NCBI GenBank assembly: GCA_965277405.1 | Contig: OZ255726.1 | Coordinates: 160,001 to 224,000, forward strand | DNA: 64,000 bases | Direction: 5' to 3' | From: Gammaproteobacteria bacterium | GTDB lineage: Bacteria > Pseudomonadota > Gammaproteobacteria > G965277405 | Part shown: piece by piece, positions 4,573 to 58,137 of the stretch | Numbering within the stretch: the first letter of the stretch is position 1 | Layout: each line of letters starts with the position of its first letter | Notes under the pieces: model-generated | Told to the model about the DNA's origin: nothing | Seen by the model: the letters and a program-made list of their open reading frames with translations, nothing else | Databases searched by the model: none | Position numbers and translations under genes: made by a program

Positions 4573-4861
4573 GGAAGCTCTGATTAAGTCCATAATGGGC
4601 GAGACGGAGCAAAAACGCTGATGAAACTTAAGCGCAGCACTTGATAATACTGGTGGTCTTGTGGGTGTTGCCAAGTGCTGCAACGACGGCGCGCAGCGTT
4701 TTCTCCCGTCGTTGTGTTGCATATACTTTGGGTTTGCGGCAATTGCTTACGCTTGCTGTGTTGCATCCATTGGCGTATATGCTACGGCATGCGGTTTGCG
4801 CCTTGCAATCATCAACAATTGCAGGCAAACTCGCCCCAGCAGCGAGTTAATCAAAGATTCC
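4573..4861 (+). mobile_element. MITE-A full copy, begins immediately after panB stop
   Basis: TIRs at both ends; flanks differ (ATAA / TTAG). Confidence 0.9.
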
Positions 4862-5146
4862 TTAGACAAACAACAGCGCACAGTGTCACCACAACTGTAT
4901 CCAACATTACAACAATGCCAACAACAACTCGCAGTTGACGAGCAGCCAGAAATTGTAGAAAATTGAGCACTGCTACAATTACGCAGGCAAGGATTCACTC
5001 CAAAGCAAGTTGCCATGCGCGATTTACAGCTGGCTGCGCCACATCCATCTTGTCAACAACTGATTATTTTAGCCGCTGCGATCATTGGCAAGACCCTCCA
5101 TATTGATAACATTATTGATAACATTGAATGCACGAGGACACTATGA
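4862..5146 (+). pseudogene. panC: Pantothenate synthetase C-terminal remnant
   Basis: Translates LDKQQRTVSPQLYPTL...EN*ALLQLRRQGFTPKQVAMRD...LIILAAAIIGKTLHIDN, matching the PanC C-terminal domain; follows panB; N-terminal two-thirds missing; internal TGA at 4964-4966. Confidence 0.8.
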
Positions 5147-5991
5147 ACACATCTTTTGCGACATCGCTGTATATCTGTCTCCAACACATTGTCCCGCAAC
5201 ACACAATATCACGGGTATTTGGATTACTTGCCAACGCCAGACTGGGAGCAATTTCCCACTGGGTTATTCGTCGCTTCATCAGCGCATATTCGATTGATAT
5301 GTCACAGGCGCAGCAAACTGACCCAACAGCCTTTCATTCGTTTAATGAATTTTTTACCCGTGCGCCAAAACCCCGCACTTTTACAGGCGCAACATGCTAC
5401 GCCCCGACTGATGCCACCATCAGCCAACTCGGACGGATTGATGCCTCACAAACACTCATCCAAGCCAAATGCCACAGCTATCATCTAGAGGCGCTGCTTG
5501 CCAATAGCCATACCCAACCACGGATTGACACCAGGCAATTCAACGGCGGCAACTATGCCACACTGTATTTATCCCCTGCAGATATACATAGAATCTATAT
5601 GCCCATTGCCGGAACACTCCAGACCATGCGCTTTGTCCCAGGAAAACTGTTTGCGGTAAACACCACAACTAGCAATCACGTCGATAATTTATTCGCACGC
5701 AATGAGCGCCTGATATGCATGTTCGACACTGCCATCGGTCCTCTAGCCGTGATTTTTGTTGGCGCGATGATTGTCGGCAGCATGGCAACAAGTTGGGCTG
5801 GTGTCATCCAACCCACACCAAGAGTAATCACTACTACCAAGTATAATATAGACATTGCATGCGGTGCAGATATTGGTCATTTTCAGCTAGGTTCAACGAT
5901 CATATTGTTGACAGGTAGCAAATTCGCCGCTTGGAATACAACATTAACTGCTGGCATGACAATCCGCATTGGCGATGGTATAATTCACTAA
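5143..5991 (+). CDS. psd: Phosphatidylserine decarboxylase proenzyme
   Basis: SFNEFFTR, YLSPADIHRIYMP, LFARNERL, VGAMIVGSM, LGST cleavage motif; ATG overlaps panC stop (ATGA). Confidence 0.93.
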   Translation: MNTSFATSLYICLQHIVPQHTISRVFGLLANARLGAISHWVIRRFISAYSIDMSQAQQTDPTAFHSFNEFFTRAPKPRTFTGATCYAPTDATISQLGRIDASQTLIQAKCHSYHLEALLANSHTQPRIDTRQFNGGNYATLYLSPADIHRIYMPIAGTLQTMRFVPGKLFAVNTTTSNHVDNLFARNERLICMFDTAIGPLAVIFVGAMIVGSMATSWAGVIQPTPRVITTTKYNIDIACGADIGHFQLGSTIILLTGSKFAAWNTTLTAGMTIRIGDGIIH

Positions 5992-6276
5992 GGAACCTCT
6001 GATTAAGTCGCTGATGGAACGAGTTTGATGGCAATTGCTGATGATTGCAAGGCGCATTCCGCAGGCGCATGCCGTAGCATATACGCCAAGGGATGCAACA
6101 CAGCAAGTACCGCTACCATCAAACCCAAAGTATATTCAACAGAAGGACGGGAAAAAACGCTGCGCTAACGTCGTTGCAGCACTTAATAATACCACCAGTA
6201 TTATCTGCGCACTGCGTCTAGTTATCATCAGCGTTTTTTCTCCGTCTCGCCCATCATGGACTTAATCAGAGGTTCA
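5992..6276 (-). mobile_element. MITE-A full copy at psd stop codon
   Basis: TIRs; CTAA duplication at 5988-5991 (contains psd TAA) and 6277-6280. Confidence 0.92.
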
Positions 6277-10873: not shown

Positions 10874-10917
10874 GGAGTCGATGATGGGCGAGACGGAGCA
10901 AAATAATGATGATAACT
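10874..10917 (+). mobile_element. MITE-A left-end remnant
   Basis: GATGATGGGCGAGACGGAGCAAAA matches MITE-A subterminal sequence. Confidence 0.7.
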
Positions 10918-11044
10918 TTAACTCAAACTCATTAAATGGGAAAATAGCTTTGTCTTCCTCAATTGTTGTTAAAACTCGGTCGAATTCCTCTTGTGTTCCA
11001 GAAAAAGCATCACAAATTTTATTTTTTAATTCTAAAAGATCCAT
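10918..11044 (-). pseudogene. N-terminal stub of the gene coupled to the methyltransferase (probable restriction endonuclease), truncated at MITE
   Basis: MDLLELKNKI...DKAIFPFNEFE starts overlapping MTase stop, same low GC, then runs into MITE remnant. Confidence 0.5.
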
Positions 11045-12671
11045 TAGAACTCTCAATTATATTTAAATATGAATAAAGCTTATTTTCAGTGGGGTGTTGT
11101 GTTGCACTAAAAAATTCATGAAAGATAGGAAGATTTTCAAGGTCTGAGCGCAGCACCTTATGGGTATCGAAGATTTTTCTAAAAACCCAATTCATCAGTC
11201 TTGTATTTAGTAACCATGCAAGATTTGTATGTGATACACCAAAATCACTATTTAATACCAGCGCGTTAGCACTATTTAGAAATAGTGTCGATTTTGTGTC
11301 GTGATGGAAAATTAGCTTAGCCGAAATGAATCTATATATGAGCTTTTCTGGTGCTTGATATATATCATATGGAGCAACTTGTTGATACAAACACAGGTTG
11401 CTTGGAATGAAATATTTTGGTGCTGGTAGTGTTCCATACACAATTTGCGAACCTTTATAAACAGGAATGTGATTTTTTTCGTGATAAGTCTTGACATACT
11501 TTTTGTTGTTTCCTGTTACTATGCCTAGCCCCCATTTTGCATTTCCGTCAAGGGTTAAGTGGGGGATGCCATATAGGTGGCTGACAGTGTCAGCATCCAC
11601 GTGAGTACATTCAAAATTAAAGATATGCTTAGGATTTTTTAGAAAAGAATGCTGACTACGAAAATGCGTGCCATTAGCCGTGGCGCATACAATATTGTTG
11701 TCAATAGGTGGGATGTCATGTTTGCGAAAAACGACACCTTTAGCCTTTGTTAATAGCCCTTGAAAGGGTTTACCAAAATCGATAAATCCAAGTATATGTT
11801 GATTTGACACTAATTCTCGTGTCGTTCTAAAAGTTGATATATTGAAGAAAGCGTCTGGAAGCAACATGCCGATTATTCCATTGGTTGATACTTTTAACAG
11901 TGCTGCGCGCAGGAATAGTGCGGATGTGTCAGTGCTTTTTGAACAGTTAAATGCCTTAGAAAATAATTGTTTTTGCACAATAGTGAGTTTCTTACCCCAA
12001 GGTGGATTGGTTAGGATAACGTCAAAAACAGCAAATTCAGAGTTTTGTTGCATAATCACATCGGCGAGGAAATCGACGGTATAGACATTGTTAGAGTCAA
12101 GATTAGTCCAGTGTTTGAAACGAGCTCTTGTTATTGCGACGGCGACGGGGTCAATGTCAAACCCATAAATATTTTTAGGCAAAAAACCACGAGCTAACGC
12201 AGCAATAATGAAGTTACCAGAACCACAACACGGGTCACAGAATATTAAATGTGATACATCGCCTTTAATATATGCAAAGAAACGTGCAACAATGTCAGCA
12301 GGGGTATAGTAAATAGCCTCTTTGTTCCGATAGGAATTAGCAAGAGACGTTTCATAAGCAGTGCCGATATTGTCAAAATCTAGCGATTCATAATGTTTTA
12401 CACGGTTTAGAAAACTGGCTTGAACAGTACTGTGATCATGGCTATCAAAATTAGATTTATTAGCGCGGGCGATGAGCTTTTCAGTCCCAACGATTGATGC
12501 CTTAAATATATCAAAAGAAGAACGTGAAATATATGACCCGTTAATGGCTTCAAGATAACCAGCTTTTACCCAGTTGCGCACAGACGCCGTAGCAACCTGG
12601 AGCGCGTCTGCTACAGCAGCGATAGTCATTGTGTTAGCAGGCGGTAATTCGAAAGATAGTTGGGACGACAT
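11019..12671 (-). CDS. N6-adenine DNA methyltransferase (gamma class, TaqI/Eco57I-like) with N-terminal HTH
   Basis: YYTP, motif I DPCCGSGNF, GFDID, motif IV NPPW, TaqI-C-like TRD (KLIYRFIS); N-terminal VADALQVATASVRNWVKAG HTH. Confidence 0.88.
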   Translation of the reverse strand: MSSQLSFELPPANTMTIAAVADALQVATASVRNWVKAGYLEAINGSYISRSSFDIFKASIVGTEKLIARANKSNFDSHDHSTVQASFLNRVKHYESLDFDNIGTAYETSLANSYRNKEAIYYTPADIVARFFAYIKGDVSHLIFCDPCCGSGNFIIAALARGFLPKNIYGFDIDPVAVAITRARFKHWTNLDSNNVYTVDFLADVIMQQNSEFAVFDVILTNPPWGKKLTIVQKQLFSKAFNCSKSTDTSALFLRAALLKVSTNGIIGMLLPDAFFNISTFRTTRELVSNQHILGFIDFGKPFQGLLTKAKGVVFRKHDIPPIDNNIVCATANGTHFRSQHSFLKNPKHIFNFECTHVDADTVSHLYGIPHLTLDGNAKWGLGIVTGNNKKYVKTYHEKNHIPVYKGSQIVYGTLPAPKYFIPSNLCLYQQVAPYDIYQAPEKLIYRFISAKLIFHHDTKSTLFLNSANALVLNSDFGVSHTNLAWLLNTRLMNWVFRKIFDTHKVLRSDLENLPIFHEFFSATQHPTENKLYSYLNIIESSNGSFRIKK

Positions 12672-12732
12672 CTGCAATATTCCGTATTAACGCGTCGGCT
12701 TTAGATGGTGATGATTAAAACGCATATTTGAT

Positions 12733-12977
12733 GAAGCGCTGATAAAGTTGTTGATGAAGCGAGTTTGCCTGAAATTGCCGCAAACCAAAAGTATAATGAA
12801 CAGGATATTGAACACAGCGACGGGGGAAAACGCTGCGCTGCGTCGTCGCAGCACTTGATAATACCCACAAGACCCACAAAACCCACAAGACCCACCAGTG
12901 TTATCTGCGCACTGCGCTTAAGTTTCATCGAGGGTTGTTTCTCCGTCTCGCCCGTCATGGACTTAGTCAGAGCTTCC
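12733..12977 (-). mobile_element. MITE-A copy, internally deleted, three 9-bp loop repeats
   Basis: Ends GACTTAGTCAGAGCTTCC; contains ACCCACAAG-ACCCACAAA-ACCCACAAG. Confidence 0.85.
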
Positions 12978-13002
12978 TTATGGATAGTTGCAAATCAAAC
13001 AA

Positions 13003-14052
13003 CTACTCTGGGCTGCTATACCAAGTTGCACGAGCCCTACCATGTCGAGCTAATAAACCCTGCTCTACCAACTGGGACAGTCTGTTTTTAAGCGTTGCTC
13101 TGGATACGCTATCGATGATATTTTCGGCATTTTTTATCGTAATACGGTGGTGTTCGTCTACATATTGCATGATGACCATACTCTCATAAGGAAGCGTAAA
13201 GTATTTATCTGCAGCATGTGTTTTTGCTAACAAGTGGTCTTTTTGCCGTTTTAAAGAATTGAGAAAAAAACGCATCCATGGTAGCCAGTCAGTTTTTTTA
13301 TTTTTTAAGGTTCTTTGAGTTCTTTGCAAAGAGAGATAATATGCATCTTTGTTCTTCTCCACAATGCTCTCAAGTGAGCTATACGGAATATAGCTGTAGC
13401 CAGCTTTCATCAATAAGAGGCTAATTAAAACACGAGATAATCGACCATTTCCATCCTGAAAAGGGTGGATTGCCAAAAAAATAACATTAAATACAGCAAC
13501 GACTATCAGAGGGTGATAACTTTTATCTGCGAGTGTTTCTCTCGTCCAACTAAGCAAATCCTGCATTTCCTTTGGAGTATCAAAAGGAAAGCTGGTTTTA
13601 AACACAATACCAAGGCTTTTTCCATCAGGATCAAAGGCTTCAACGTTATTAGAGTGTTTTTTGTACTCGCCACGATGCCAAACATCTTGTTGCGAATGTC
13701 TGAGAAGCGTGGAGTGGAGTTGTTTGATGTAGTTTTCAGTGAGTGGGATGTCTGCATAATTTTCAAATACCATTGCCAGCGTTTCTGCATAACCTGCTAC
13801 TTCCTGTTCATCACGAGTGAGGAACGATGCCTTGCCAACATTGCCAAGAAGTTCTTCAATTTGACGGTTTTCTAACTGAGAACCTTCAATCCGAGTAGAA
13901 GAACCAATACTTTCAATAGTAGCAACATGGTTAATAACCTTTAAACGTTCAGGGGTTAGGTTGTTGCATGCTTGCCAACTGCCCTTAAATTCATCAATTT
14001 CGGTAATGAGACGGAGCAGTTCAGGAGTAATGGTTAATGATGTGATATTCAT
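13003..14052 (-). CDS. Fic family protein (class II, N-terminal inhibitory motif) with C-terminal HTH
   Basis: HPFQDGNGRLSR Fic motif; SSTRIEG inhibitory helix; C-terminal winged HTH. Confidence 0.92.
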   Translation of the reverse strand: MNITSLTITPELLRLITEIDEFKGSWQACNNLTPERLKVINHVATIESIGSSTRIEGSQLENRQIEELLGNVGKASFLTRDEQEVAGYAETLAMVFENYADIPLTENYIKQLHSTLLRHSQQDVWHRGEYKKHSNNVEAFDPDGKSLGIVFKTSFPFDTPKEMQDLLSWTRETLADKSYHPLIVVAVFNVIFLAIHPFQDGNGRLSRVLISLLLMKAGYSYIPYSSLESIVEKNKDAYYLSLQRTQRTLKNKKTDWLPWMRFFLNSLKRQKDHLLAKTHAADKYFTLPYESMVIMQYVDEHHRITIKNAENIIDSVSRATLKNRLSQLVEQGLLARHGRARATWYSSPE

Positions 14053-14080
14053 GATAGCTTAGCTTATTCAACACACTTAT

Positions 14081-14403
14081 GGAACCGCTGATTAACTCGC
14101 TGATGCGGCGAGTTTGCCTGCAATTGCTGATGATTGCTAGGCGCAAACCGCTGAGCACATGACCTAACTACACGCCAAGCGATGCAACACTGCAGGCGTA
14201 AGCAATTACCGCTAACCATAAGTATATTGAAAGGGGACGGGGGAAAACGCTGCGCTGCGTCGTCGCAGCACTTGATAATACCCACAAGACCCACAAGACC
14301 CACAATACCACCCACAATACCCACCAGTAATATCTGCGTACTGCGCTTGTTATCATCATATTGTTGCTACGTCTTGCCCATCATGGAATTAATCAGCGGC
14401 TAC
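14081..14403 (-). mobile_element. MITE-A copy with expanded loop repeat, TTAT duplication
   Basis: Degenerate TIRs; TTAT at 14077-14080 and 14404-14407; 4-5 CCCACAA units. Confidence 0.88.
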
Positions 14404-14613: not shown

Positions 14614-15609
14614 TTATCTACCTCTCAGTTTCTTGTTACGACGCGCGATGAGTGCTGCGGTTGCCTCTGCTGATCCATCATGAAATGAGCCAAACCATTT
14701 ATCGAGTGGGATAACGCCATCAGCAAAATTTACGTCAAAATATCGATGATGCAAATAATGCGCGTAATACGGTAAGAAAAAACTTTTCTTCCCAGCAACT
14801 ACGACCCGCTCAAACCCTGTATGACCTATTGCGGGTGATAGCCCTGCCAGTACACCAAGACTTAAAAAGTGGATTGGATGCGCAGGGATGAGCCAAAGCA
14901 AGGCAAAACCAGAAAAATACAACAGATGCTCAAGAGGATGCATCGATAACCCCGACCATGGCGCTGGGTTTATATTGTTATGGTGGAGCTTATGCGCAAG
15001 TTTATACAGCGGTGCCCAGTGCAGTAAGCGATGGACGCAAAAAAAATGACACTCGTGCAGCATTGGCACCAGCAACAACAGTAATACGCAGTAGATTGGG
15101 TGTTCTGCAAAACTGAGGCTGGCGACATTGCCATTGGCATACAGCCATAATGAAGTTATTTCCCACGCGCTCCAAATAGGTACGCCGCTGGCAAATGTCC
15201 AAAATATATTCTCTTTATTTTGGCTTTTGAACATAAACACCGCGCTGTTGGTTTTTGGCCATTGGCGGTTGTATTTAAAAGCAGTCGCTTGGCTACGGCG
15301 AGTATACAGCCAAAAATTCCACGAACCGACGACTAACAGCGTCAGAGCCATATTGCGGAATACAATCAACACCATCCAACTGACAGAGTCTGCAAGAATT
15401 GTGGCAACACTCGGCGTTAAGTAATGCCAAATCAATAATGCCAAACCAGCATACAGCAGCGTCCAAGGAAAAAAATACGTCGGCAGCCATTGCAGCAAAG
15501 CCATCAACTTTGGCGGCCATATAAAAACAGGTGGGTATGCAATCCGTTGGTGCGGTGTCCAATAGCCGCGGCGGGTTTCTTTGCCGTAATCGTTGTCATT
15601 TAAGGGCAT
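14614..15609 (-). CDS. Sterol desaturase / fatty-acid hydroxylase family protein
   Basis: His boxes HECHFFCVHRLLH, HKLHH, HPLE, GHTG, HYLHH. Confidence 0.85.
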   Translation of the reverse strand: MPLNDNDYGKETRRGYWTPHQRIAYPPVFIWPPKLMALLQWLPTYFFPWTLLYAGLALLIWHYLTPSVATILADSVSWMVLIVFRNMALTLLVVGSWNFWLYTRRSQATAFKYNRQWPKTNSAVFMFKSQNKENIFWTFASGVPIWSAWEITSLWLYANGNVASLSFAEHPIYCVLLLLLVPMLHECHFFCVHRLLHWAPLYKLAHKLHHNNINPAPWSGLSMHPLEHLLYFSGFALLWLIPAHPIHFLSLGVLAGLSPAIGHTGFERVVVAGKKSFFLPYYAHYLHHRYFDVNFADGVIPLDKWFGSFHDGSAEATAALIARRNKKLRGR

Positions 15610-15640
15610 TGGCTTCTCTGTATATCATTCGTTGGGATGT

Positions 15641-15664
15641 GGTTTCATAAAATATTCATAATTT
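15641..15664 (+). promoter_or_regulatory. Pho-box-like direct repeat
   Basis: GGTTTCATAAAATATTCATAA: two TCAT cores 11 bp apart, conserved in the copy upstream of phoX. Confidence 0.55.
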
Positions 15665-15767
15665 ATAGGGTTTTATATCCAAACTACAGTTGCTAGAAAG
15701 TAGTTGTGCAAACACTGGCGGCGGTAAATAGTTATTAGGGGTTTACCTCCAAGCAGGCGTTTGATTT

Positions 15768-15815
15768 TTCACCCACATATTCACCCACATATTCACCCAC
15801 ATATTCACCCACATA
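15768..15815 (+). repeat. 12-bp tandem repeat x4 (TTCACCCACATA)
   Basis: Four perfect units just upstream of mini-phoX ATG. Confidence 0.95.
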
Positions 15816-15827
15816 AAAGTGCAAAAC

Positions 15828-16133
15828 ATGACAGCAGACAATCCAGTGGTAGCAGTTAATAATGAATACATCAACCTTGAGTCTGTATCTCCAACCACCA
15901 AAGTGGCAAGCGAGGATGATATACAAAAACGCAAAACTGGAAATAGCCAAACGCCATGGGGTATTTACCTTACATGTGCAGAGAATTGCAACGGTTATTT
16001 TGCCTGCGGTGATAGCTACTATACACCAACAGCGATGCATTACCGTGATGAAGTTCGCGCAACAAGCTTAGATCATCGAGCGTGGCTAGCTGCATTGCCG
16101 CAATTGAATCCACCTATCTCAATTTGCACATAG
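15828..16133 (+). pseudogene. Internally deleted phoX relic kept as one open frame (101 aa)
   Basis: Three blocks match the PhoX at 21811: VVAVNNEYIN...KVASEDD; GNSQTPWGIYLTCAEN...YTPTAMH; VRATSLDHRAWLAALP...CT. Confidence 0.88.
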
Positions 16134-16135
16134 CC

Positions 16136-17275
16136 ATGGCTAAGATAACGCTTGCAAACATCAGCAAAAGCTATCGCGATGCACGAGTATTAAAAGGAAT
16201 AAATCTAGATATTGCTGATGGAGAATTTCTAACGCTGGTTGGGCCGTCTGGCTGTGGTAAATCAACCTTGTTGCGTATCATCGCCGGGCTAGATAGTCAG
16301 GATGGCGGGGATGTGCTCATCGACGGAAGTATTGCGAATAACACCAAAGCTTGCGAACGTGACTTGTCAATGGTTTTTCAATCGTATGCGCTTTACCCTC
16401 ATTTATCCGTGCGTAAAAATATGGAAACTCCTCTAAAGCTGCGTGATTTGAGCATAGGGGAGCGCTTGCCGTGTATCAGATCATTGATTCCTAAAAGGCG
16501 GGCAAAGATTGGCAAAATACAGCAGATTGTAGCTGAAGTCTCTGCCACATTAAAAATTGATCACTTGTTGGAGCGTAAGCCAGGGCAATTATCTGGTGGG
16601 CAGCGTCAGCGGGTTGCCTTGGGTCGTGCGATGGTGCGTAAACCTGTTGCTTTCTTAATGGATGAGCCTTTATCCAATCTGGATGCGACTCTGCGGATAC
16701 ATATGCGCGCAGAATTGGCGGAACTCCATCAGAAGCTTGGCGTTACATTTATATATGTTACCCATGATCAGGCAGAAGCATTAACGATGTCTGATCGGAT
16801 GGCGGTAATGATGGACGGGCAAATTCTGCAATTGGGTACGCCAGATGAAATTTATAAAACCCCAATAGACAGAACGGTCGCCGAATTTGTTGGCAGCCCT
16901 AAAATAAATCTCTTCCCTGCCGATGTTGATAATTATGGTGTTGTAACTGCGTATGGTGTCTCCTTACAGCGGCAAGTCGCTGCAACATCATGCAAAGCTG
17001 TTGTTGGGGTCAGGCCCGAACATTTGCAATTGGTTGCAGCTACAACGGATAATGAACATTGGTCTTTTCATATCATCCATAAAGAAAACTTAGGGTCTGA
17101 TTTTTTTCTTCATGGTCATATAAATGGGTCAAAAGTTCGTACGGTCGCACGAGTTACACCACACAACGCTGCGAAATTAACAATAGGTTCTGAAGTTTTC
17201 CTACAAGCAGTGCCGAACAGTGCGCTTGTTTTTGGTGAAGATGACCGACGTCTACAATTTCGCGATTTACACTAA
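16136..17275 (+). CDS. CUT1 ABC transporter ATP-binding protein (UgpC/MalK-like)
   Basis: GPSGCGKS, VFQSYALYPH, LSGGQRQRVALGR, MDEPLSNLD, TOBE tail. Confidence 0.92.
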   Translation: MAKITLANISKSYRDARVLKGINLDIADGEFLTLVGPSGCGKSTLLRIIAGLDSQDGGDVLIDGSIANNTKACERDLSMVFQSYALYPHLSVRKNMETPLKLRDLSIGERLPCIRSLIPKRRAKIGKIQQIVAEVSATLKIDHLLERKPGQLSGGQRQRVALGRAMVRKPVAFLMDEPLSNLDATLRIHMRAELAELHQKLGVTFIYVTHDQAEALTMSDRMAVMMDGQILQLGTPDEIYKTPIDRTVAEFVGSPKINLFPADVDNYGVVTAYGVSLQRQVAATSCKAVVGVRPEHLQLVAATTDNEHWSFHIIHKENLGSDFFLHGHINGSKVRTVARVTPHNAAKLTIGSEVFLQAVPNSALVFGEDDRRLQFRDLH

Positions 17276-18234
17276 TGGCTCAACACCGTAGTAGTGCCGG
17301 ATACTGGTTTATTGCCCCCGCCTGTTTACTGATGATTATCATATTGTTCATTCCGGTTGTATGTGCAGCAACCCTTTCCTTTAGCAACTATTCCCTTGGT
17401 AATACCTCGTTTAACTGGGTTGGTTTGAAAAATTATGCGCAATTATTGAACCACTCTAGCTATAGCAAAATGATGATCGCCAGCTTTACTTACGTCATAA
17501 TTGTTGTTCCGTTGTCTATTGGTCTGGGGCTTGGGGCAGCATTGCTTATCAATTCACTCAAGCGGTTTGGTGATTTGTATAAAACGATCTATTTCCTGCC
17601 TGTAATGGCAACTTTAATGGTCATGGCAATTGTTTGGGAATTTTCCCTTCATCCAACAATCGGCATCGTTAATAAAACATTAGCCCTTGGTTGCGACACC
17701 AACTTTGAAACGTTTGTCAGCTTGGCGTGGCTACCTTGGTCTGATGGCGCAAAAAACTGGTATGCCAGTAGCTGTGAAAATGGGTTTCCACTGTGGTTTG
17801 GCGATAAATATTATACGATGAGTGCGGTTGCATTCATCGGTATTTGGCAAGGATTCGGTTTTAACATGGTGCTGTATCTGGCGGGGTTAACTTCTGTACC
17901 GCGCGAACTATATCATGCAGCCGCAATGGATGGCGCGATTAGTGGCTGGCATCGTTTTCATTTGGTCACTTGGCCGCTATTAGGGCCAACAACCGTTTTT
18001 GTTGTCACAATTACAACTATACGTTCTTTTCAAGTTTTTGATACGGTTGAAGCTATTACTCGCGGCGGACCTGCCAAAAGCACATATGTCATGATGTATG
18101 CTATTTATGAAAAAGGGGTGCAACAAAACCTTATCGGCTTGGGGTCGGCAATTACGATTGTGTTTCTGGGATTTGTGTTGTTCCTCACCCTACTGCAACG
18201 CCATTTGATTGAAAAAAAGGTGCATTACGCATGA
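17275..18234 (+). CDS. CUT1 ABC transporter permease (UgpA-like)
   Basis: EAA-like loop ELYHAAAMDGA, multiple TM helices. Confidence 0.9.
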   Translation: MAQHRSSAGYWFIAPACLLMIIILFIPVVCAATLSFSNYSLGNTSFNWVGLKNYAQLLNHSSYSKMMIASFTYVIIVVPLSIGLGLGAALLINSLKRFGDLYKTIYFLPVMATLMVMAIVWEFSLHPTIGIVNKTLALGCDTNFETFVSLAWLPWSDGAKNWYASSCENGFPLWFGDKYYTMSAVAFIGIWQGFGFNMVLYLAGLTSVPRELYHAAAMDGAISGWHRFHLVTWPLLGPTTVFVVTITTIRSFQVFDTVEAITRGGPAKSTYVMMYAIYEKGVQQNLIGLGSAITIVFLGFVLFLTLLQRHLIEKKVHYA

Positions 18235-19127
18235 ATATGAGCGCATCGCCCTTCAAAGAAACGATTAAACATATCATCTTAATCCTTGGTGCAATCATCG
18301 TCATCGTACCGTTTTATTTGATGACTAGCTATTCGTTCAAATCACAACGAGAAATTATGACTAACACTGGCGGCTATTTTGGATCGCAACAGCAGGTTGT
18401 CGATGAATATTGTGTGAAATTAGGCAATGAAAGAAAGAATTGTGAGGTCAAGCCTGCTATTTATAATTATAGCGAAGCTTTTAAAAAATCACCTTTGCTA
18501 CGTTATCTGCTGAATGGCTTGCTGGTAACGGCATCGATTTTTTTAATTCAAGTCATCATTGCCATGCCCTGCGCGTATGCCTTATCGAAACTTCGATTTA
18601 AGGGGCGTGATTTTGTGTTTTCAATGGTTGTATTCAGCTTGTTGATTCCGGTACACGCCATTGCCTTACCTCTGTATATCATGCTGTCCAAAATAGGACT
18701 TATTAACAGCTATGCAGCCATGATTATTCCGTGGACGATTTCAGTCTTTGGGATTTTTCTAATGCGCCAATTTTTTATGACTGTACCTGATGATCTAATC
18801 GACGCTGCCAGAATGGATGGTATGAGCGAATATTCAATCATCTGGAAAGTTATGTTACCTACAGCGATACCAGCCCTACTTGCTTTTGCAATTTTTTCAA
18901 TCGTGGCGCATTGGAACGACTATTTCTGGCCAAGAATTGCTATCACTGGCGATAAAAACCTGTATACGCCTCCGTTAGGTATGCGCAATTTTAAGGGGGG
19001 CTCGGACGGGTCTAATTGGGGGCCGATGATGGCAACAGCCACCATCATCGTTACTCCGCTAATCGTTGCTTTTCTGCTGGCACAAAAACGCTTCATCGAA
19101 GGAATTACCCTAACCGGAATGAAATAA
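18231..19127 (+). CDS. CUT1 ABC transporter permease (UgpE-like)
   Basis: FLMRQFF..PDDLIDAARMDG, WNDYFWP, QKRFIEGI. Confidence 0.9.
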   Translation: MNMSASPFKETIKHIILILGAIIVIVPFYLMTSYSFKSQREIMTNTGGYFGSQQQVVDEYCVKLGNERKNCEVKPAIYNYSEAFKKSPLLRYLLNGLLVTASIFLIQVIIAMPCAYALSKLRFKGRDFVFSMVVFSLLIPVHAIALPLYIMLSKIGLINSYAAMIIPWTISVFGIFLMRQFFMTVPDDLIDAARMDGMSEYSIIWKVMLPTAIPALLAFAIFSIVAHWNDYFWPRIAITGDKNLYTPPLGMRNFKGGSDGSNWGPMMATATIIVTPLIVAFLLAQKRFIEGITLTGMK

Positions 19128-19179: not shown

Positions 19180-20418
19180 ATGAAACATATTAGATCTTTA
19201 GCCGCAGGTGCTGTTTTGCTGGCTGCACCAGCGCTTGCAGTAGAAATTGAAGTTGCCTATCCATATGGTTATTTACTTGGAGTTACGTATGAAAAAATCA
19301 TGGTCGAGTTTAACAAACAGCATCCTGATATCGACGTTAAATTCCGCGCACATTACGAAAATTACGAAGATGCAACGAATACTATTTTACGCGAAGCTGT
19401 ATCAGGAAACCTGCCAGATGTCACATTGCAAGGCTTAAATCGCCAAGCAATTTTAGTAGAAAAAGGCATCGCTAAATCACTCGACCCGTTCATCGCACAA
19501 GAAGCTGATTTTAAACAAGATGGTTATCACGATGCGATGTTGCGGCTGTCTAGATTCAACAATCAAATTTATGGTATCCCGTTTGCCATCTCAATGCCTA
19601 TTGGTTACTACAACATGGATATCATGAACAAAGCAGGTGTAGCTACCATGCCAACCACATGGGATGATGTAATCTCTGCTTGCCATAAAATGCAAAAAAT
19701 TGGCATTAGAAACCCTGTTTTCTGGGGGTGGAATATTACAGGGAACTGGTTTCTGCAAGCGTTGCTGTGGTCACAAGGCGTCCCGATTATTAAAGATAAT
19801 AAAATTAATTTTGATGGCAAAGCAGGCCTGACTGCATTTGAGACAATGAAGAAAATCTTCCGTGACTGTAAAATGCAAAATCTTTCAAATATAGATTCTT
19901 TGTCTGCGTTCACCTCTGGTGAAATTGGGATGATGTTCACGTCAACTTCGGAAGTTGGCACTGTTGAACGTACTAAAAGTGATTTTGAACTAAAAACTGA
20001 TGTATTCCCAGGAGTTGGCAAAAGTCCAATAGCTTTACCTGCTGGTGGCAATGCGGCATTGCTGGTTTCAACGTCTACAGACCCGCAACGTGTGGCTGCT
20101 GCATGGCAATTTATAAAATTCATTACCTCTGGTATTGGCGCAGCTGCTGTTGCTGAAACAACTGGCTATATACCGCCAAACAAAGCTGCCAACGAACTTA
20201 TTCTAGCCGACTTTTACAAACGCAATCCAAATAAAGAAACAGCTTTTCGTCAATTGCCGTTATTGCGCAATTGGCTGGCATATCCAGGGGCTAATGGCCT
20301 GGCTATTACCCAAGTTATTTATGATGGGATTGAGGGAATTGTTGTTGGCGAAACCAATGACATGAAGGAATTACAACAACAACTTACCGCAGAAGTCTCA
20401 GATTTATTGCCGCAATAA
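19180..20418 (+). CDS. CUT1 ABC substrate-binding protein (UgpB-like)
   Basis: Signal peptide, EFNKQHPDIDV, YGIPFAISMP, AAWQFIKF, TGYIPPN. Confidence 0.88.
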   Translation: MKHIRSLAAGAVLLAAPALAVEIEVAYPYGYLLGVTYEKIMVEFNKQHPDIDVKFRAHYENYEDATNTILREAVSGNLPDVTLQGLNRQAILVEKGIAKSLDPFIAQEADFKQDGYHDAMLRLSRFNNQIYGIPFAISMPIGYYNMDIMNKAGVATMPTTWDDVISACHKMQKIGIRNPVFWGWNITGNWFLQALLWSQGVPIIKDNKINFDGKAGLTAFETMKKIFRDCKMQNLSNIDSLSAFTSGEIGMMFTSTSEVGTVERTKSDFELKTDVFPGVGKSPIALPAGGNAALLVSTSTDPQRVAAAWQFIKFITSGIGAAAVAETTGYIPPNKAANELILADFYKRNPNKETAFRQLPLLRNWLAYPGANGLAITQVIYDGIEGIVVGETNDMKELQQQLTAEVSDLLPQ

Positions 20419-20541
20419 TCGGCTAATTAAACTTATACTTGAATGGAGGAGCAGCGACAATGCTCTCCTCTATTCCATAATCACCTCGCGCATACCAAAT
20501 TATATAATGGTTACACCCAACAACTTTCCAGGGAGAATTGT

Positions 20542-21309
20542 ATGAGCTTTATACAAATTACCGACACTCATTTTATTCCTAAAGGTCAACTTCTGTATGG
20601 TCTAGACCCTTACAAACGTCTCCAGGCAGGTATTGATTTGATTAATAAAGAGCACAATGACGCTGACTTTGTTTTAGTCACAGGCGATCTAGCCGATTTG
20701 GGGGACAAAGAAGCCTACATCCAGTTGCAAGAGGTCGTCGCGCCTTTAACAATACCCATTCATTTTATGATGGGTAACCACGACAGCAGAGCTCCTTTTC
20801 GTGAAATATTTACCAATGTAGCGGAAATTGAGGGGGGCTTTTTTCAATATGCTGTAGAAACAGATACAATGCGTATTGTATGCCTTGATTCACTAATTGA
20901 CATCCCAGGAGTTCATCAAGGGCAATTATGTGAAACGCGCCTTCGCTGGCTTGATGCGGAGATAGCAGCAACGCCATCTGATAAAAAATTAGTTATAGCA
21001 AACCATCACCCACCATTCGATTTGGGTATAGCTGAGATGGACAAAATAAAACTTACAGACAGCGATGCCTTTCAAGAAGTTTTAGAAAAGCGCAAACCTG
21101 ATCTGTTGATATTCGGGCATATTCATCTCCCTATATCTGGAAATTGGCGCGGCATCCCTTTTCACATTCAACGCGGCTTCAATCATCAAGGTGCCCTTAA
21201 TTTCGTCGATGATACTCCATGTATATTCATCGATGAAAACCCCGACATTGCTATCATTCGCCATACGCAAGATAGCATTCATGTCTTTACCAAATCTGTA
21301 AGCGTGTAA
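20542..21309 (+). CDS. Metallophosphoesterase, GpdQ/CpdA-like phosphodiesterase
   Basis: QITDTH, VTGDLAD, GNHD, HHPP, FGHIH motifs; GGGAG RBS before ATG 20542. Confidence 0.88.
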   Translation: MSFIQITDTHFIPKGQLLYGLDPYKRLQAGIDLINKEHNDADFVLVTGDLADLGDKEAYIQLQEVVAPLTIPIHFMMGNHDSRAPFREIFTNVAEIEGGFFQYAVETDTMRIVCLDSLIDIPGVHQGQLCETRLRWLDAEIAATPSDKKLVIANHHPPFDLGIAEMDKIKLTDSDAFQEVLEKRKPDLLIFGHIHLPISGNWRGIPFHIQRGFNHQGALNFVDDTPCIFIDENPDIAIIRHTQDSIHVFTKSVSV

Positions 21310-21483: not shown

Positions 21484-21520
21484 ACAAACTCGTTCCATCA
21501 GCGAGTTAATCAGAGGTTCC
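21484..21520 (+). mobile_element. MITE-A right-end remnant abutting duplicated desaturase fragment
   Basis: AAACTCGTTCCATCAGCGAGTTAATCAGAGGTTCC. Confidence 0.8.
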
Positions 21521-21629
21521 ATAAACTATGGTGGTCATATACATACAGGCGGGTATGCAAGCCGTTGCTGCGGCTTCTAATAACCGCGGCAGCTTTTCAT
21601 TGGCGTAATCGTTGTCATTTAAAGGCATT
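21521..21629 (-). pseudogene. 5' remnant of a second desaturase copy
   Basis: Encodes MPLNDNDYANEK... homologous to 15501-15609; truncated at MITE end. Confidence 0.8.
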
Positions 21630-21659
21630 GCATTCTTTGGATAGCATTCGTTGGGATGT

Positions 21660-21683
21660 GGTTTCATAAAAAATTCATAATTG
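21660..21683 (+). promoter_or_regulatory. Pho-box-like direct repeat upstream of phoX
   Basis: GGTTTCATAAAAAATTCATAA, TCAT cores 11 bp apart; phoX is a canonical PhoB target. Confidence 0.6.
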
Positions 21684-21810
21684 ATGGGATTTTATATCCA
21701 AACTACAGACAACAGTAAAGTAGTTATACAAACACTGTCGGCATTACAGAGATATTGGGGTTTCGACGTGAGGCAGACGTTTGATTTTTTACATACACCA
21801 GGTGAAAAAT

Positions 21811-23706
21811 ATGAAAGAACAATATACAGAGACGAGTACAGTAGACTTTAATCGTTGCATTGCAAAAATGATATCACGACGTGATTTTTTACAGCGCAGC
21901 GCGCTTGGTTTGAGTGGTTTTGCAGCAGCGGCTACCTTGCCAAACATCTCATTCGCGAATACACCATCTGCAGTGCTTGGTTTTAACCACATAGCTGCAA
22001 ATAGTCATGATACTGTTACGCTAGCGACTGGCTATAACTGGAACGTACTTGTGTCGTGGGGTGATCCATTGTTTCCTCAAGCCCCAGTTTTTGATAACGA
22101 TACTCGTGGCAATAGCACCAGCCAAATGCTGGCGTTTGGTGATAACAACGATGGTATGGCTTTATTTCCAATCAGCGATGACCATGCAGTTGTGGCAATC
22201 AATAATGAATACATCAACATGGATTCTTTTTATCCAAACGGCAAAGTGGCAAGTGCGGATGATGTAAAAAAATGCAAAGCTGCACATGGTGTGAGTGTAT
22301 TTGAAATTAAAAAAACAGCCACTGGCGGTTGGCAAATACACCTTGACGGTCAACGTAACCGCCGTATTACCGCAGACACGCCGATGATGATTACAGGACC
22401 AGCACGTGGCAATGAACATCTGCATACTGCAGCTGATCCAAACGGCATTCTAGCATTAGGCACATGGAATAATTGCGGAAATGGGCAAACTCCTTGGGGA
22501 ACTTATCTTACATGTGAAGAGAATTTCAATAGTTATTTTGCTAGTGATGATAGTAATTATACCCCAACCACGATGCATACCCGCTATGGAGTTGGTGTGA
22601 AGGATAGAGGATATAGCTGGTATAAATACGACCGTCGCTTTGATATTAGCAAAGCGCCAAATGAGCCAAATCGTTGTGGCTATATCGTTGAAATTGACCC
22701 ACATAACCCTGACAGCATGCCGAAAAAACTTACAGCGCTTGGTCGATTTAAGCACGAAAACGCTGAAGTTGTTGTTGCCAGCAATGGTCAAGTCGTTGTG
22801 TATATGGGTGATGATGAACGCGGTGAATATTTGTATAAGTTTGTCAGCAACAACAAATACCAACCTGGCGATACTACCCACAACTCCAACTTGTTAGACG
22901 AAGGAAAACTATATGTAGCGCGCTTTGACCCAACCGACAAGTTAGCAGGAGACGGCCATTGGATTGAGTTGCGCTATGGCATCAATGGCTTGGACAAAGC
23001 TAACGGGTTTAACAACCAAGCCGAGGTCTGTATATTTGCAAGACACGCAGCAACAGTTGTGCGGGCAACAACGATGGACCGTCCAGAATGGGTCGCGGCA
23101 CATCCGCATAAAGCCGAGGTGTATTGCACTTTAACGAATAATAAAAATCGTGGCATTAAGAAAAATGCAGGTGGGGTTGAGCAAGTTATTGGCGGACCCA
23201 ATCCACGTAAAAAAAACATTTATGGTCAAATTGTGCGCTGGCGGCCTGCCAATGGTGACCACCTAGCAAGTGACTTTATTTGGGATTTATTTGTGATTGC
23301 TGGCAATCCATCCGTCCATGCAACTGGCTTAAAAGCAGGTTCAAATAATATTACCGCTGAAAATATGTTTAATTCTCCAGATGGTATTAAGTTTGATAAT
23401 GGCGGACGGCTTTGGATTCAAACCGATGGCAAGTATTCAAACAAAGGTGAGTTTGCTGGAATGGGGAATAACCAAATGCTCTGCGCCGATACACAAACGG
23501 GAGAAATCCGTCGCTTTATGGTTGGTCCTATTGCCTGTGAGATTACTGGTGCAATGTTCACAGCAGACCATACAACAATGTTTGTTGGTATCCAGCATCC
23601 AGGTGAAAAAAACGCTGGGTCTAGTTTTCCTGGGGGCGGTGCAACTGTACCACGTTCATCAGTTATTGCTATTCGCAAAAATGATGGCGGTGTTATTGGC
23701 AGCTAG
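21811..23706 (+). CDS. phoX: Tat-exported alkaline phosphatase PhoX
   Basis: SRRDFLQ twin-arginine signal; FGDNNDGM, NNEY, TPWGTYLTCEEN, GRFKHEN, MDRPEW, SPDG, CEITG, IQHPGE. Confidence 0.95.
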   Translation: MKEQYTETSTVDFNRCIAKMISRRDFLQRSALGLSGFAAAATLPNISFANTPSAVLGFNHIAANSHDTVTLATGYNWNVLVSWGDPLFPQAPVFDNDTRGNSTSQMLAFGDNNDGMALFPISDDHAVVAINNEYINMDSFYPNGKVASADDVKKCKAAHGVSVFEIKKTATGGWQIHLDGQRNRRITADTPMMITGPARGNEHLHTAADPNGILALGTWNNCGNGQTPWGTYLTCEENFNSYFASDDSNYTPTTMHTRYGVGVKDRGYSWYKYDRRFDISKAPNEPNRCGYIVEIDPHNPDSMPKKLTALGRFKHENAEVVVASNGQVVVYMGDDERGEYLYKFVSNNKYQPGDTTHNSNLLDEGKLYVARFDPTDKLAGDGHWIELRYGINGLDKANGFNNQAEVCIFARHAATVVRATTMDRPEWVAAHPHKAEVYCTLTNNKNRGIKKNAGGVEQVIGGPNPRKKNIYGQIVRWRPANGDHLASDFIWDLFVIAGNPSVHATGLKAGSNNITAENMFNSPDGIKFDNGGRLWIQTDGKYSNKGEFAGMGNNQMLCADTQTGEIRRFMVGPIACEITGAMFTADHTTMFVGIQHPGEKNAGSSFPGGGATVPRSSVIAIRKNDGGVIGS

Positions 23707-24879: not shown

Positions 24880-24923
24880 TTTTTTCTCCGTCTCGCCCCA
24901 TCATGGACTTAATCAGAGCTTCC
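24880..24923 (-). mobile_element. MITE-A left-end remnant abutting IS5
   Basis: CTCCGTCTCGCCCCATCATGGACTTAATCAGAGCTTCC then CTAA. Confidence 0.85.
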
Positions 24924-24927
24924 CTAA

Positions 24928-26148
24928 GGAAGCTCTGGTTAAGTCCCAAACAACAGCAATATCAGCTACAAAGATATACAATGGTGAATCTATTTGAATA
25001 TTTGAATAAGCGGATAATCTTATGAAACAAACAACTTTTGCCAGTGCTGCATACGACCACAAGAAAGTAACAACAAAACGTGAAAAATTCTTGCAGTTAA
25101 TGTACAAATTAGCTCCATGGCAACAGTTGTTAGAGTTAATAGAACCGCATTATCTCAAGAAAGGGAATGGCCGCCCACCGATTAATATGCAGACCATGTT
25201 ACGCATTTATTTTTTACAGCAATGGTACAACTTATCAGACCCAGGGGTAGAAGAAGCACTATATGACATGGAAAGCATGCGGCGTTTTGCCCATATAGAG
25301 CTGATAGACGATGCCATCCCTGATGAAACTACCATCTTGAACTTGCCCGCAGGATCATAGAAAAACATCAACTCAGCGTCAAGATACTTGCTGTCGTGAA
25401 TGAGTATTGTATGGAAAATAATATAATAATCTCACAAGGGACAATGGTTGATGCCACGACCATCAATGCGCCATCATCTACGAAGAATAAAGAGAAAAAA
25501 CGGGATCCTGAAATGCATCAAACCCGCAAAGGCAATCAGTGGTATTTTGGCATGAAGATTCATATAGGAACTGACGCTAATAGCAATATGATTCATAGCG
25601 CGACAGTTACAGCCGCGAATGAAGCTGACATCAATGAACTCCCAAAATTGCTGCGTAAAACAGACAAGGTTATCTTTGCCGATGCAGGATATACGAGCGA
25701 CAGTTATAAACGCGGCTCGCGTCACCTTGGGATAGATTGGCGCGTGAATGATAAACGTAAACCAAAGCAGCAAATGAGCGGCTCGCAGCGCCAACGCAAT
25801 AGACAGAACTCTAAGGTGCGCGCCCGGATTGAGCACTGTTTTCGGGTAATCAAATGTCAGTTTGGTTATAAGAAAGCTCGCTACAAAGGACTAGAAAAGA
25901 ATCGAGTACAAGTATTTTCTTTGCTTGCATTGACGAACTTATACATGCTGCGAGGACGACTAACAGGATAGAACCGCCCAAAATTCAAGAAAAACAATAA
26001 AAAACAGTAAAAAACAGTAAAAAACAGTAAAACAGCAACACGAAGATCAGCGAAATGATCAAATATTGACCATTGAAAATTATTGCTATTATTTTTTTGG
26101 AGTATATACGAGTTATTGGAGTATATGAGCGTCTTAATCAGAGCTTCC
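24928..26148 (+). mobile_element. IS5-family (IS5 subgroup) insertion sequence, 1221 bp
   Basis: TIRs GGAAGCTCTGGTTAAG / CTTAATCAGAGCTTCC, YTAR-type flanks (CTAA, TTAG), transposase inside. Confidence 0.93.
25022..25971 (+). pseudogene. IS5-family DDE transposase, frameshifted near 25343
   Basis: GRPP...MLRIYFLQQWYNLSD...PDETTILN in frame 1; VDATTI, KGNQWYFGMKIHIG, FADAGY, RARIEHCF in frame 2. Confidence 0.9.
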
Positions 26149-26152
26149 TTAG

Positions 26153-26445
26153 GGAAGCTCTGATTAAGTCGCTGATGGAGCGAGGTTGCCTGCAATTGCT
26201 GATGATTGCAAGGCGCAAACCGCTAAGCGCATGCCGAGCTATACGCCAAGGGATGCAACACAGCAAGTACCGCTTGTAGGCAAACCATCATCTATTCAAT
26301 AGAAGGCCGGGAAAAAACGCTGCGCTAACGTCGTTGCAGCACTTGGCAGCACCCACAAGACCACCAGTATTATCTGCGCACTGCGTCTAGTTATCATCAG
26401 CGTTTTTTCTCCGTCTCGCCCATCATGGACTTAATCAGAGCTTCC
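26153..26445 (-). mobile_element. MITE-A full copy directly abutting IS5 right end
   Basis: Perfect TIRs; near-identical to 2247-2532 with one loop repeat. Confidence 0.93.
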
Positions 26446-28139: not shown

Positions 28140-28295
28140 TGAACCTCTGCTTAAGTCCATGATGGGCGAGACGGAGAAAAAACGCTGAATGATAACAAGA
28201 CGCAACAATCGAATACACCCAAACTGTTGCTTACTTTTATTATCAGGAACTTAGACTTAAGCCGCTGATGCAGCACATTAATAATCAGAAATTCC
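28140..28295 (+). mobile_element. Degenerate MITE-A copy just upstream of dsbE-like start
   Basis: GAACCTCTGCTTAAGTCCATGATGGGCGAGACGGAGAAAAAACGCTG; TIR-like TAATCAGAAATTCC at ~28282-28295. Confidence 0.75.
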
Positions 28296-38189: not shown

Positions 38190-38354
38190 CACCCATCATA
38201 TATTCAGTAGATGGACGGGAAAAAAGCGGTACTGCGTCATTGCAGCACTTGGTAATACCGACAAGTCCCCACCAGTGTTAGCTGCGCACTGCGTTTAAGT
38301 TTAATCGAGCGATTTAGCTCCGTCTCGCCCATCATGGACTTAATCAGAGCTTCC
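38190..38354 (-). mobile_element. MITE-A left half overlapping coaE stop
   Basis: Ends CCCATCATGGACTTAATCAGAGCTTCC|TTAG. Confidence 0.85.
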
Positions 38355-48967: not shown

Positions 48968-49243
48968 GGAAACTCTGATTAAGTCCATGACGGGCGAGAC
49001 GGAAAAAAAACGCTGATGATAACTAGACGCAGTGCGCTGATAATACTGGTGGTATTATTAAGTGCTGCAACGACGTTAGCGCAGCGTTTTTTCCCGTCCT
49101 TCTGTTGAATATACAACGGTTTGATGGTAATTGCTGTGTTGCATCCCTTGGCGTATAACTCGGCATGCGCTTAGCGGTTTGCGCCTTGCAATCATCAGCA
49201 ATTGCCATCAAACTCGCTCCATCAGCACTTAATCAGAGGTTCC
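48968..49243 (+). mobile_element. MITE-A full copy
   Basis: TIRs; flanks CTAG / TTAG. Confidence 0.9.
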
Positions 49244-49425
49244 TTAGCAGATCTGGGTTGCTAGGTGGTACAACAACAAACATTATTCACGGCAGGCGGC
49301 AACATATGCCCGCGACATATGACCACGACAATTGCTGCGCTGGGATATGTATTTGCGCTATCATGCAATGTAAGCTGCGTTGCAATCAACGCTATTTACT
49401 AGCAAAATCACCGTATTAGCGTGCT

Positions 49426-57848: not shown

Positions 57849-57853
57849 CTTGT

Positions 57854-58137
57854 GGAACCTCTGATTAACTCACTGATGGAGCGAGTTTGCCTGCAATTGC
57901 TGCTGATTGTCAGGCACAAACGAAGAGCGCATGACATGACCTTGCTATACGCCAAGGGATGCAACACAGCAAGCGTAAGCAATTGCCGCAAACCCAAAGT
58001 ATATGCAACACAACGACGGTAATACCCACAAGACCCACAAGACCCACAAGACCCACCAGTGTTATCTACGCACTGCGCTTAAGTTTCATCAGCGTTTTTG
58101 CTCCGTCTCGCCTGTCATGGACTTAAGCAGAGATTCA
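57854..58137 (-). mobile_element. MITE-A copy, internal deletion, three loop repeats
   Basis: GGAACCTCTGATTAACTC ... GACTTAAGCAGAGATTCA; (ACCCACAAG)x3. Confidence 0.88.

Follow-up and report, generated by a model that had tools for sequence, protein, structure and literature searches.

In the integron attI1 region, the short upstream open reading frames (ORFs) ORF-11 and ORF-18 raise the expression of a first cassette gene that lacks a Shine-Dalgarno (SD) sequence by termination-reinitiation, with the cassette supplying the stop codon, and the sequence of the leader peptide matters little (PMC8876359). Translation of a leader can also decide whether Rho terminates ahead of the first structural gene, as reported from 3'-end mapping in Escherichia coli 5' untranslated regions (UTRs), for the toiL upstream ORF (uORF) and for uORFs of Mycobacterium tuberculosis (PMC7815308, PMC12121999, PMC11260477, 10.1101/2022.06.01.494293). 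Here we analyse a stretch of 64,000 nucleotides (nt), hereafter the window, from a Gammaproteobacteria bacterium (GenBank assembly GCA_965277405.1, contig OZ255726.1, positions 160,001 to 224,000 of the forward strand). It contains an ORF, P0001, which we call the relic: a remnant of the enzyme gene phoX that lies between a phoX-type promoter region and the ATPase gene leading a ugp-like ATP-binding cassette (ABC) operon, and that may be kept as a translated leader of this operon.

By analogy, the integron leaders would be the closest functional counterpart of the relic. The likeness is that a leader without known protein function ends close to where a newly inserted gene without an SD sequence begins (PMC8876359). 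According to the same source, ORF-11 has a canonical SD (GGAG, 8 bp upstream), the leaders span 11-18 codons and a dedicated capture platform hosts them, whereas the present locus, known from sequence alone, offers a 101-codon remnant of an enzyme gene whose own SD has been lost. Some of the Rho-gating uORFs are translationally coupled to the first structural gene; they are reportedly short and often sense signals by stalling, whereas the relic shows no sensing feature. The relic is also like an ordinary duplication pseudogene in being collinear with its paralogue at about 78-82% nucleotide identity, in its large deletions and in its loss of invariant residues. Frameshifts and stops are usual in such pseudogenes, however, and the relic has none over 101 codons and sits exactly between promoter and operon start. 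From PhoX (PF05787), its ancestor, it differs in retaining only about 89 of 631 codons and in the deletion of the N-terminal signal region. The literature listings yielded no account of a remnant of an enzyme gene that is retained as a coupling leader, which does not prove that there is none.

Composition and origin of the phoX relic

The relic ORF consists of the phoX start codon followed by three phoX blocks in a single frame, as BLASTP and tblastn against the intact PhoX revealed; the intact gene lies 5.7 kb downstream (Table 1). The blocks were placed by splice-tolerant nucleotide alignment, and all of them have codon phase 0/0. PhoX residues are counted from ATG 21811, the likely start codon, and the 631-residue form that begins there is present in the protein collection. 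The alignment implies the loss of 360 nt before block 1 (following codon 2-3), of 195 nt before block 2 and of 468 nt before block 3, each in frame. An earlier first-pass annotation, made by a model from the letters and a list of ORFs, had described three distant PhoX segments joined in one open frame over 101 codons and had suggested a codon alignment to phoX as a check. The block alignment bears out this description, and the length of every deletion is a multiple of three. The ascription to PhoX holds for the three blocks, the best of which shares 72% protein identity with the neighbouring PhoX, and not for the whole frame. The relic scores 18.7 bits against Pfam PhoX PF05787 (cut-off 24) and matches only profile positions 167-187 of a domain of about 515 positions, compared with 575 bits for the intact neighbour. 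Its last 35 nt (16101-16135) show no significant match to the 3' part of phoX and only chance-level scores against the upstream regions of relatives.

That the relic is not an enzyme had likewise been claimed, and its sequence supports the view that it is a phoX pseudogene. The 360-nt deletion removed the N-terminal export-signal region, which in the intact paralogue we read as a probable twin-arginine signal, and most of the domain is gone as well. At the 16 columns that are invariant in PhoX and 15 outgroup proteins, the relic keeps 10 residues and has changed 6.

The relic belongs to a direct duplication that the first-pass annotation had not mentioned (15501-16100 against 21519-23106, about 80% identical). 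The duplicated unit runs from the 5' end of a divergent fatty-acid-hydroxylase gene through the intergenic region into phoX, and the ugp-like operon lies between its two copies. In copy A the hydroxylase gene is complete and phoX is decayed; in copy B phoX is complete and only a stub of the hydroxylase gene remains. Upstream of the two start codons, 15501-15772 and 21519-21792 are 81.5% identical over 276 columns, and the core at 15576-15689 is 89% identical. In a MAFFT alignment the 5' regions of both copies are collinear to and across ATG 21811, and therefore the relic ATG is the old phoX ATG, in agreement with the homology first proposed. The aligned 5' regions show just one large difference: copy A has 37 additional nt, an insertion that corresponds to a tandem repeat. 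Nucleotide homology to the paralogue is collinear and extends into flanking non-coding DNA, as in a duplication pseudogene.

On the other side of the unit, about 108 nt (about 36 codons) from the start of the hydroxylase gene lie within the duplicated segment, whose boundary falls at 15501. In the copy B stub, 8 residues agree with the intact gene before a 1-nt indel shifts the frame; the DNA is about 81% identical. The left edge of copy B adjoins a fragment of a dispersed repeat: between the metallophosphoesterase gene at the end of the operon and copy B there are about 210 nt, the last 40 of which are this fragment. A circle with a homologous fragment internal to the unit would leave such a layout after single-crossover (Campbell-type) insertion, and so would an equivalent duplicative rearrangement. 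An insertion of this kind is our candidate origin, other duplicative routes being possible too. Whatever the route, it is very likely that the relic goes back to a duplicated phoX and that the relocated uptake operon captured the promoter region and start codon of this copy.

The captured region carries a candidate PhoB-type site, a pair of TTCATAA motifs, followed on the 3' side by the -10-like hexamer TTATAT at 15673-15678, and both the pair and the hexamer are kept in the two copies of the duplication. The pair fits the PHO-box layout of 7-nt repeats in 11-nt units, as given in PMC4415409. A scan with the E. coli PHO-box consensus found no match of at least 10/14 in either copy. Phosphate regulation of the captured promoter is suggested by the TTCATAA site together with the gene content. 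Between this site and the relic lies the tandem repeat of copy A, four units of TTCACCCACATA that end about 13 nt ahead of the relic ATG. The TTCACCCACATA repeat is free of G and so probably recent; it is possibly variable between strains.

The hydroxylase gene is itself divergently paired with this phoX-type promoter region and its TTCATAA repeats. As a speculation, it may also be regulated by phosphate starvation, for example in lipid remodelling.

Preservation of the open frame

The relic frame contains no internal stop, compared with 3-10 in each of the other five frames, and an open frame appeared in 0.19% of 20,000 mononucleotide shuffles. Three independent deletions would all be multiples of three with a probability of 1/27. 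In a neutral simulation with 20,000 runs for each setting, in which substitutions were scattered at random over the phoX blocks, the frame stayed free of stops in 10% of runs at 65 substitutions, in 18% at 48 and in 30% at 32.

Changes were polarised with the 15 outgroup PhoX proteins, which are 43-56% identical to the local PhoX. Relic and PhoX differ at 34 residues; 22 of these changes arose in the relic, 2 arose in PhoX and 10 are ambiguous. Through about 22-32 relic-specific amino-acid changes and three large deletions, the frame has thus stayed intact and has taken up no small indel. The 22 relic-derived changes, together with the loss of 6 of the 16 invariant columns, show that the relic has long been free of PhoX constraint. 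The pairwise ratio of non-synonymous to synonymous divergence (dN/dS) between relic and phoX is 0.34 overall and 0.80, 0.17 and 0.31 in blocks 1-3.

Two other frames of the phoX blocks are nearly free of stops (one stop in +1, none in -0), and each of them has gained about two stops in the relic; the coding frame has gained none. Small indels are likewise absent from the 267 aligned nt of the relic, compared with 5 gap openings in the 276 columns of the non-coding and stub part, one of which is the frameshift of the hydroxylase stub within 108 nt. Taken as independent events, the in-frame deletions, the lack of stops and the lack of small indels have a nominal joint probability of about 1e-3 to 1e-2. 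Frame preservation in the relic exceeds what a simple neutral model yields, a result that we regard as suggestive and not conclusive.

The operon start, the leader reading and its rivals

Relatives of the operon were collected by a genome scan with the ATPase as query, which returned 18 loci, and L001-L012 were compared (a PhoX hit had to reach E <= 1e-4 and exceed 40 bits). The best relatives share 64-66% ATPase protein identity and belong to Thalassospiraceae, Sneathiella and Rhodospirillales metagenome-assembled genomes. The scan found no locus closer than 66% protein identity and hence no orthologous relic for comparison. Across L001-L012 the gene order of the operon is the same as far as the contigs reach, with the ATPase gene in the lead, and no PhoX match occurs in the examined flanks of these 12 loci. 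ATG 16136 is the conserved ATPase start, since residues 1-375 align from residue 1 in the relatives. Upstream of the operon, the alphaproteobacterial loci appear to carry a divergent regulator gene, as we read it from a reverse-strand start and the N-terminal coding sequence. Judged by the upstream layout of its relatives, the operon of the window no longer has the upstream region typical of it and adjoins phoX-derived DNA instead.

The upstream regions of L005, L006 and L011 and of L004, L008 and L009 were examined for such control sites, and in the gammaproteobacterial relatives an E. coli-like PHO-box match of 11-12/14 precedes the operon. Operon control thus seems to differ between lineages, with a PHO-box in gammaproteobacterial relatives and a regulator-like gene in alphaproteobacterial ones. 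Megablast of 15400-17300 against the plasmid collection returned no match.

At the downstream end of the relic, the message reads UAG-CC-AUG, which leaves 2 nt between the relic stop and the ATPase start (ATG 16136), as first described. The accompanying claim that the ATPase start has no obvious SD agrees with its anti-SD duplex energy of +1.4 kcal/mol, compared with -5 kcal/mol or better in 8 of the 12 relatives; as evidence it has low specificity, because weak starts are common in this window, as detailed below. The narrow stop-to-start gap, the overlaps of 1 and 4 nt at the next two junctions of the operon, the unusually unstructured initiation region of the relic (minimum free energy (MFE) -8.1 kcal/mol, z = +1.23) and the base composition just upstream of it speak for the leader reading. 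RNA rich in C and poor in G favours Rho loading. In 78-nt windows over 15750-15847 the C/G ratio is 3.6-4.5, reaching up to 4.5 in 15770-15847, and it is about 1 across the relic body; from this base composition only, the leader may be Rho-dependent. Rfam has no family in 15550-16250 at E <= 5, and its only matches in the whole window are two tRNAs.

We propose, at a probability of roughly 40%, that the phoX remnant is kept purely for its translatability, as an exapted cis-acting coupling and anti-polarity leader that, through deletions that kept the frame, has lost all but 101 of 631 codons and has been caught partway through shrinking. A rearrangement would have separated the operon from the regulator, the promoter and the SD found in its relatives and placed it directly behind the promoter region, 5' UTR and start codon of phoX, probably under phosphate-starvation control. 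Ribosomes would start at the old phoX ATG, read the 101-codon remnant and stop at the UAG two bases before the ATPase AUG. Their passage would cover about 0.3 kb of leader RNA against Rho-dependent polarity, following the C-rich, G-free repeat, and termination-reinitiation would pass the ribosomes on to an ATPase start that lacks an SD. What selection maintains would in that case be the frame rather than the peptide, and this would account for finding in-frame deletions only, no stops and no small indels. In the broader form in which the first-pass annotation had put it, that the relic is a selected coupling or anti-polarity leader, the idea is plausible and statistically favoured, and we place it somewhat below an even chance. 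The retained 5' region, the start codon, the open frame and the abutting stop all agree with it, while the lost SD of the relic, the commonness of SD-less starts and the insignificant masking stem do not.

If the frame is selected, the locus illustrates in nature how an operon can, after transfer or rearrangement, borrow a resident promoter and translation start and then be constrained only to keep ribosomes moving. Some open pseudogene fragments would then be functional cis elements that annotation misses as 'hypothetical protein' or 'pseudogene', and the locus would provide a clean system for separating selection on a reading frame from selection on a protein sequence. If the frame is not selected, the relic is a tidy but ordinary duplication relic.

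The main rival of the leader reading is neutral decay, which is a serious possibility. Here the operon would use the captured phoX-type promoter, the relic would be a long 5' UTR, the ATPase would initiate alone and the open frame would be coincidental. Several observations weigh against a selected leader, and those on translation starts, on the stem and on the peptide also favour neutral decay. The SD of the relic is degraded, with -1.6 kcal/mol compared with -6.8 for phoX (AGGTGA). In a survey of the 31 ATG-start ORFs of the window, whose starts are those of the longest ORFs and uncurated, 22 are weaker than -5 kcal/mol, and 9 pass this value compared with 2 of 31 control positions. Except for one permease gene, the other genes of the operon lack an SD too. 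SD-independent starts are therefore normal here, so that the SD-less ATPase start proves little and the ATPase may start alone. A stem that pairs 16079-16090 with the TAG-CC-ATG region appears in the MFE fold, but its z-score is -0.74 and 40 of 200 shuffles fold as well. L010 also has a TAG two bases ahead of its ATPase ATG; in favour of neutral decay, the relic stop may thus belong to the operon itself and be in frame by coincidence. A scan of 15400-16400 for sigma-70 promoters and terminators did not rise above shuffles (2 promoter-like hits compared with 2.6 expected), and of the two hits, the one at 15835-15863 is located beyond the relic ATG on the 3' side. As for the statistics, a single event behind all the deletions, or divergence that mostly predates inactivation, would raise the neutral probability to about 0.03-0.1; moreover, this is a single genome, and the locus was noticed for its open frame.

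The genes rpoD, metG and glmU are among those of the window that lack an SD.

A second genome, present in ENA only, contains an ATPase and one permease identical to those of the window, so that each of these two proteins is seen on 2 contigs in the protein collection, as well as a PhoX identical at 630 of 631 residues and a hydroxylase identical at 327 of 331; this strain is about 99% identical. The relic peptide forms a cluster of one, on one contig, and is not in the protein set of the near-identical strain, where the ORF is either broken or altered or merely uncalled. Searches of the protein collection returned no homologue of the peptide at 30-54 residues, only the peptide itself at 55-177 residues and nothing at E <= 1e-3 at 178-2000 residues (41 candidates). 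Both the missing ORF and the lack of a conserved homologue count against a selected leader or for neutral decay. Neutral decay, in turn, has to accommodate the small joint probability of the in-frame, stop-free and indel-free state, and the fate of the sister hydroxylase stub, which stems from the same duplication and was frameshifted within 108 nt.

It is unlikely that the relic ATG lies off the main transcript, with a promoter at or near the TTCACCCACATA repeat, or inside the relic, driving the operon, in which case no more than a shorter stretch of the frame would be translated. A perfect, copy-A-specific repeat 13 nt before the ATG and the promoter-like hit within block 1 speak for such a promoter. 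The TTCACC core of the repeat is also similar to the PHO-box unit of Streptomyces, which PMC4415409 quotes as GTTCACC for S. coelicolor. The period of the repeat is 12 nt and not 11, however, the promoter-like hits are at shuffle level, and the preservation of the frame across block 1 would be left unexplained. A function of the 101-residue product itself as a microprotein, the other option raised by the first-pass annotation, is highly improbable: the frame is open and the source record of the genome (NCBI, ENA) lists it as a protein, but the peptide combines three parts of a large domain that are not adjacent there, has no homologue in any length class searched from 30 to 2000 residues, carries mostly relic-derived changes that hit invariant PhoX columns and yields no confident fold in a single-sequence AlphaFold2 model (mean predicted local distance difference test (pLDDT) score 38.9, predicted template modelling (pTM) score 0.22), which is weak evidence because no alignment was used.

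Neighbouring genes and dispersed repeats

The coordinates of the relic, of the duplicated segments and of the surrounding genes are compiled in Table 1. The ATPase scores 380.7 bits against the NCBIfam UgpC subfamily, under the cut-off of 432. Every NCBIfam Ugp and SpdA match of the operon proteins lies under its curated cut-off, so 'ugp-like' denotes resemblance only. The ATPase and first permease genes overlap by 1 nt, and the two permease genes by 4 nt. The metallophosphoesterase gene accompanies the operon in L001, L002, L004, L005 and L007-L010.

Table 1 Features of the locus and of the surrounding window (positions in the window).
Feature	Position	Strand	Remarks
phoX relic ORF P0001	15828..16133	+	ATG 15828, 101 codons, TAG 16131-16133
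Relic block 1	15834-15938	+	phoX 22177-22281, PhoX residues 123-157; 78% nt identity, 20/35 residues, gapless
Relic block 2	15939-16055	+	phoX 22477-22593, PhoX residues 223-261; 78% nt identity, 27/39 residues, gapless
Relic block 3	16056-16100	+	phoX 23062-23106, PhoX residues 418-432; 64% nt identity, 8/15 residues
Relic tail	16101..16135	+	last 11 codons, stop and CC; holds the junction of phoX-derived and operon DNA
Intact phoX	21811..23706	+	631 residues from ATG 21811 (ORF 21781-23706); SD AGGTGA; Pfam PhoX 575 bits
Copy A of the duplicated segment	15501..15772	.	hydroxylase 5' end, intergenic region, phoX-type 5' UTR
Candidate PhoB-type site	15644..15661	+	TTCATAA at 15644 and 15655, 11-nt period
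Tandem repeat, 12 nt x 4, unit TTCACCCACATA	15768..15815	+	Tandem Repeats Finder (TRF) 4.0 copies, 100% matches; copy A only, G-free
Fatty-acid-hydroxylase-family gene, intact	14614..15609	-	divergent from the relic; Pfam FA_hydroxylase E=1.2e-17
Hydroxylase 5' stub, copy B	21521..21628	-	36 codons, frameshifted; sister pseudogene, internal control
Repeat end fragment, 40 nt	21485..21524	.	from the dispersed ~320-nt repeat; 90% identical, inverted, to 14077-14116
ABC ATPase, UgpC/MalK-like	16136..17275	+	first real operon gene; Pfam ABC_tran, TOBE_2
Two permeases	17275-18234, 18231-19127	+	Pfam BPD_transp_1 both
Solute-binding protein	19180..20418	+	Pfam SBP_bac_8 E=2.2e-41
Metallophosphoesterase, SpdA-like (below cut-off)	20443..21309	+	last gene of the conserved 5-gene unit
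Eco57I/TaqI-like N6-adenine methyltransferase	11019-12677	-	left of the hydroxylase gene
Fic-domain gene	13003-14052	-	just left of the hydroxylase gene
Partial IS5-family transposase ORF	25396-25971	+	191 residues, profile positions 104-285 of 285
Dispersed repeat copies	2133-2536, 4655-4864, 5989-6272, 12733-12981, 14076-14399, 26148-26438, 48975-49246, 57849-58130
Dispersed repeat fragments	10878-10916, 21485-21524, 24880-24916, 28144-28204, 38213-38347

The fragment at the edge of copy B comes from a dispersed family of intergenic repeats of about 320 nt with inverted ends, whose 16-mer core occurs 17 times in the window compared with 0.58 expected. Its members contain an internal run of ACCCACAAG-like repeats of about 10 nt, occur at about one copy per 6 kb and look like miniature inverted-repeat transposable elements (MITEs) or repetitive extragenic palindromic (REP) elements. 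The IS5-family ORF lies about 1.7 kb past phoX, near more copies of the dispersed repeat. The methyltransferase gene and the Fic-domain gene are each bracketed by copies of it.

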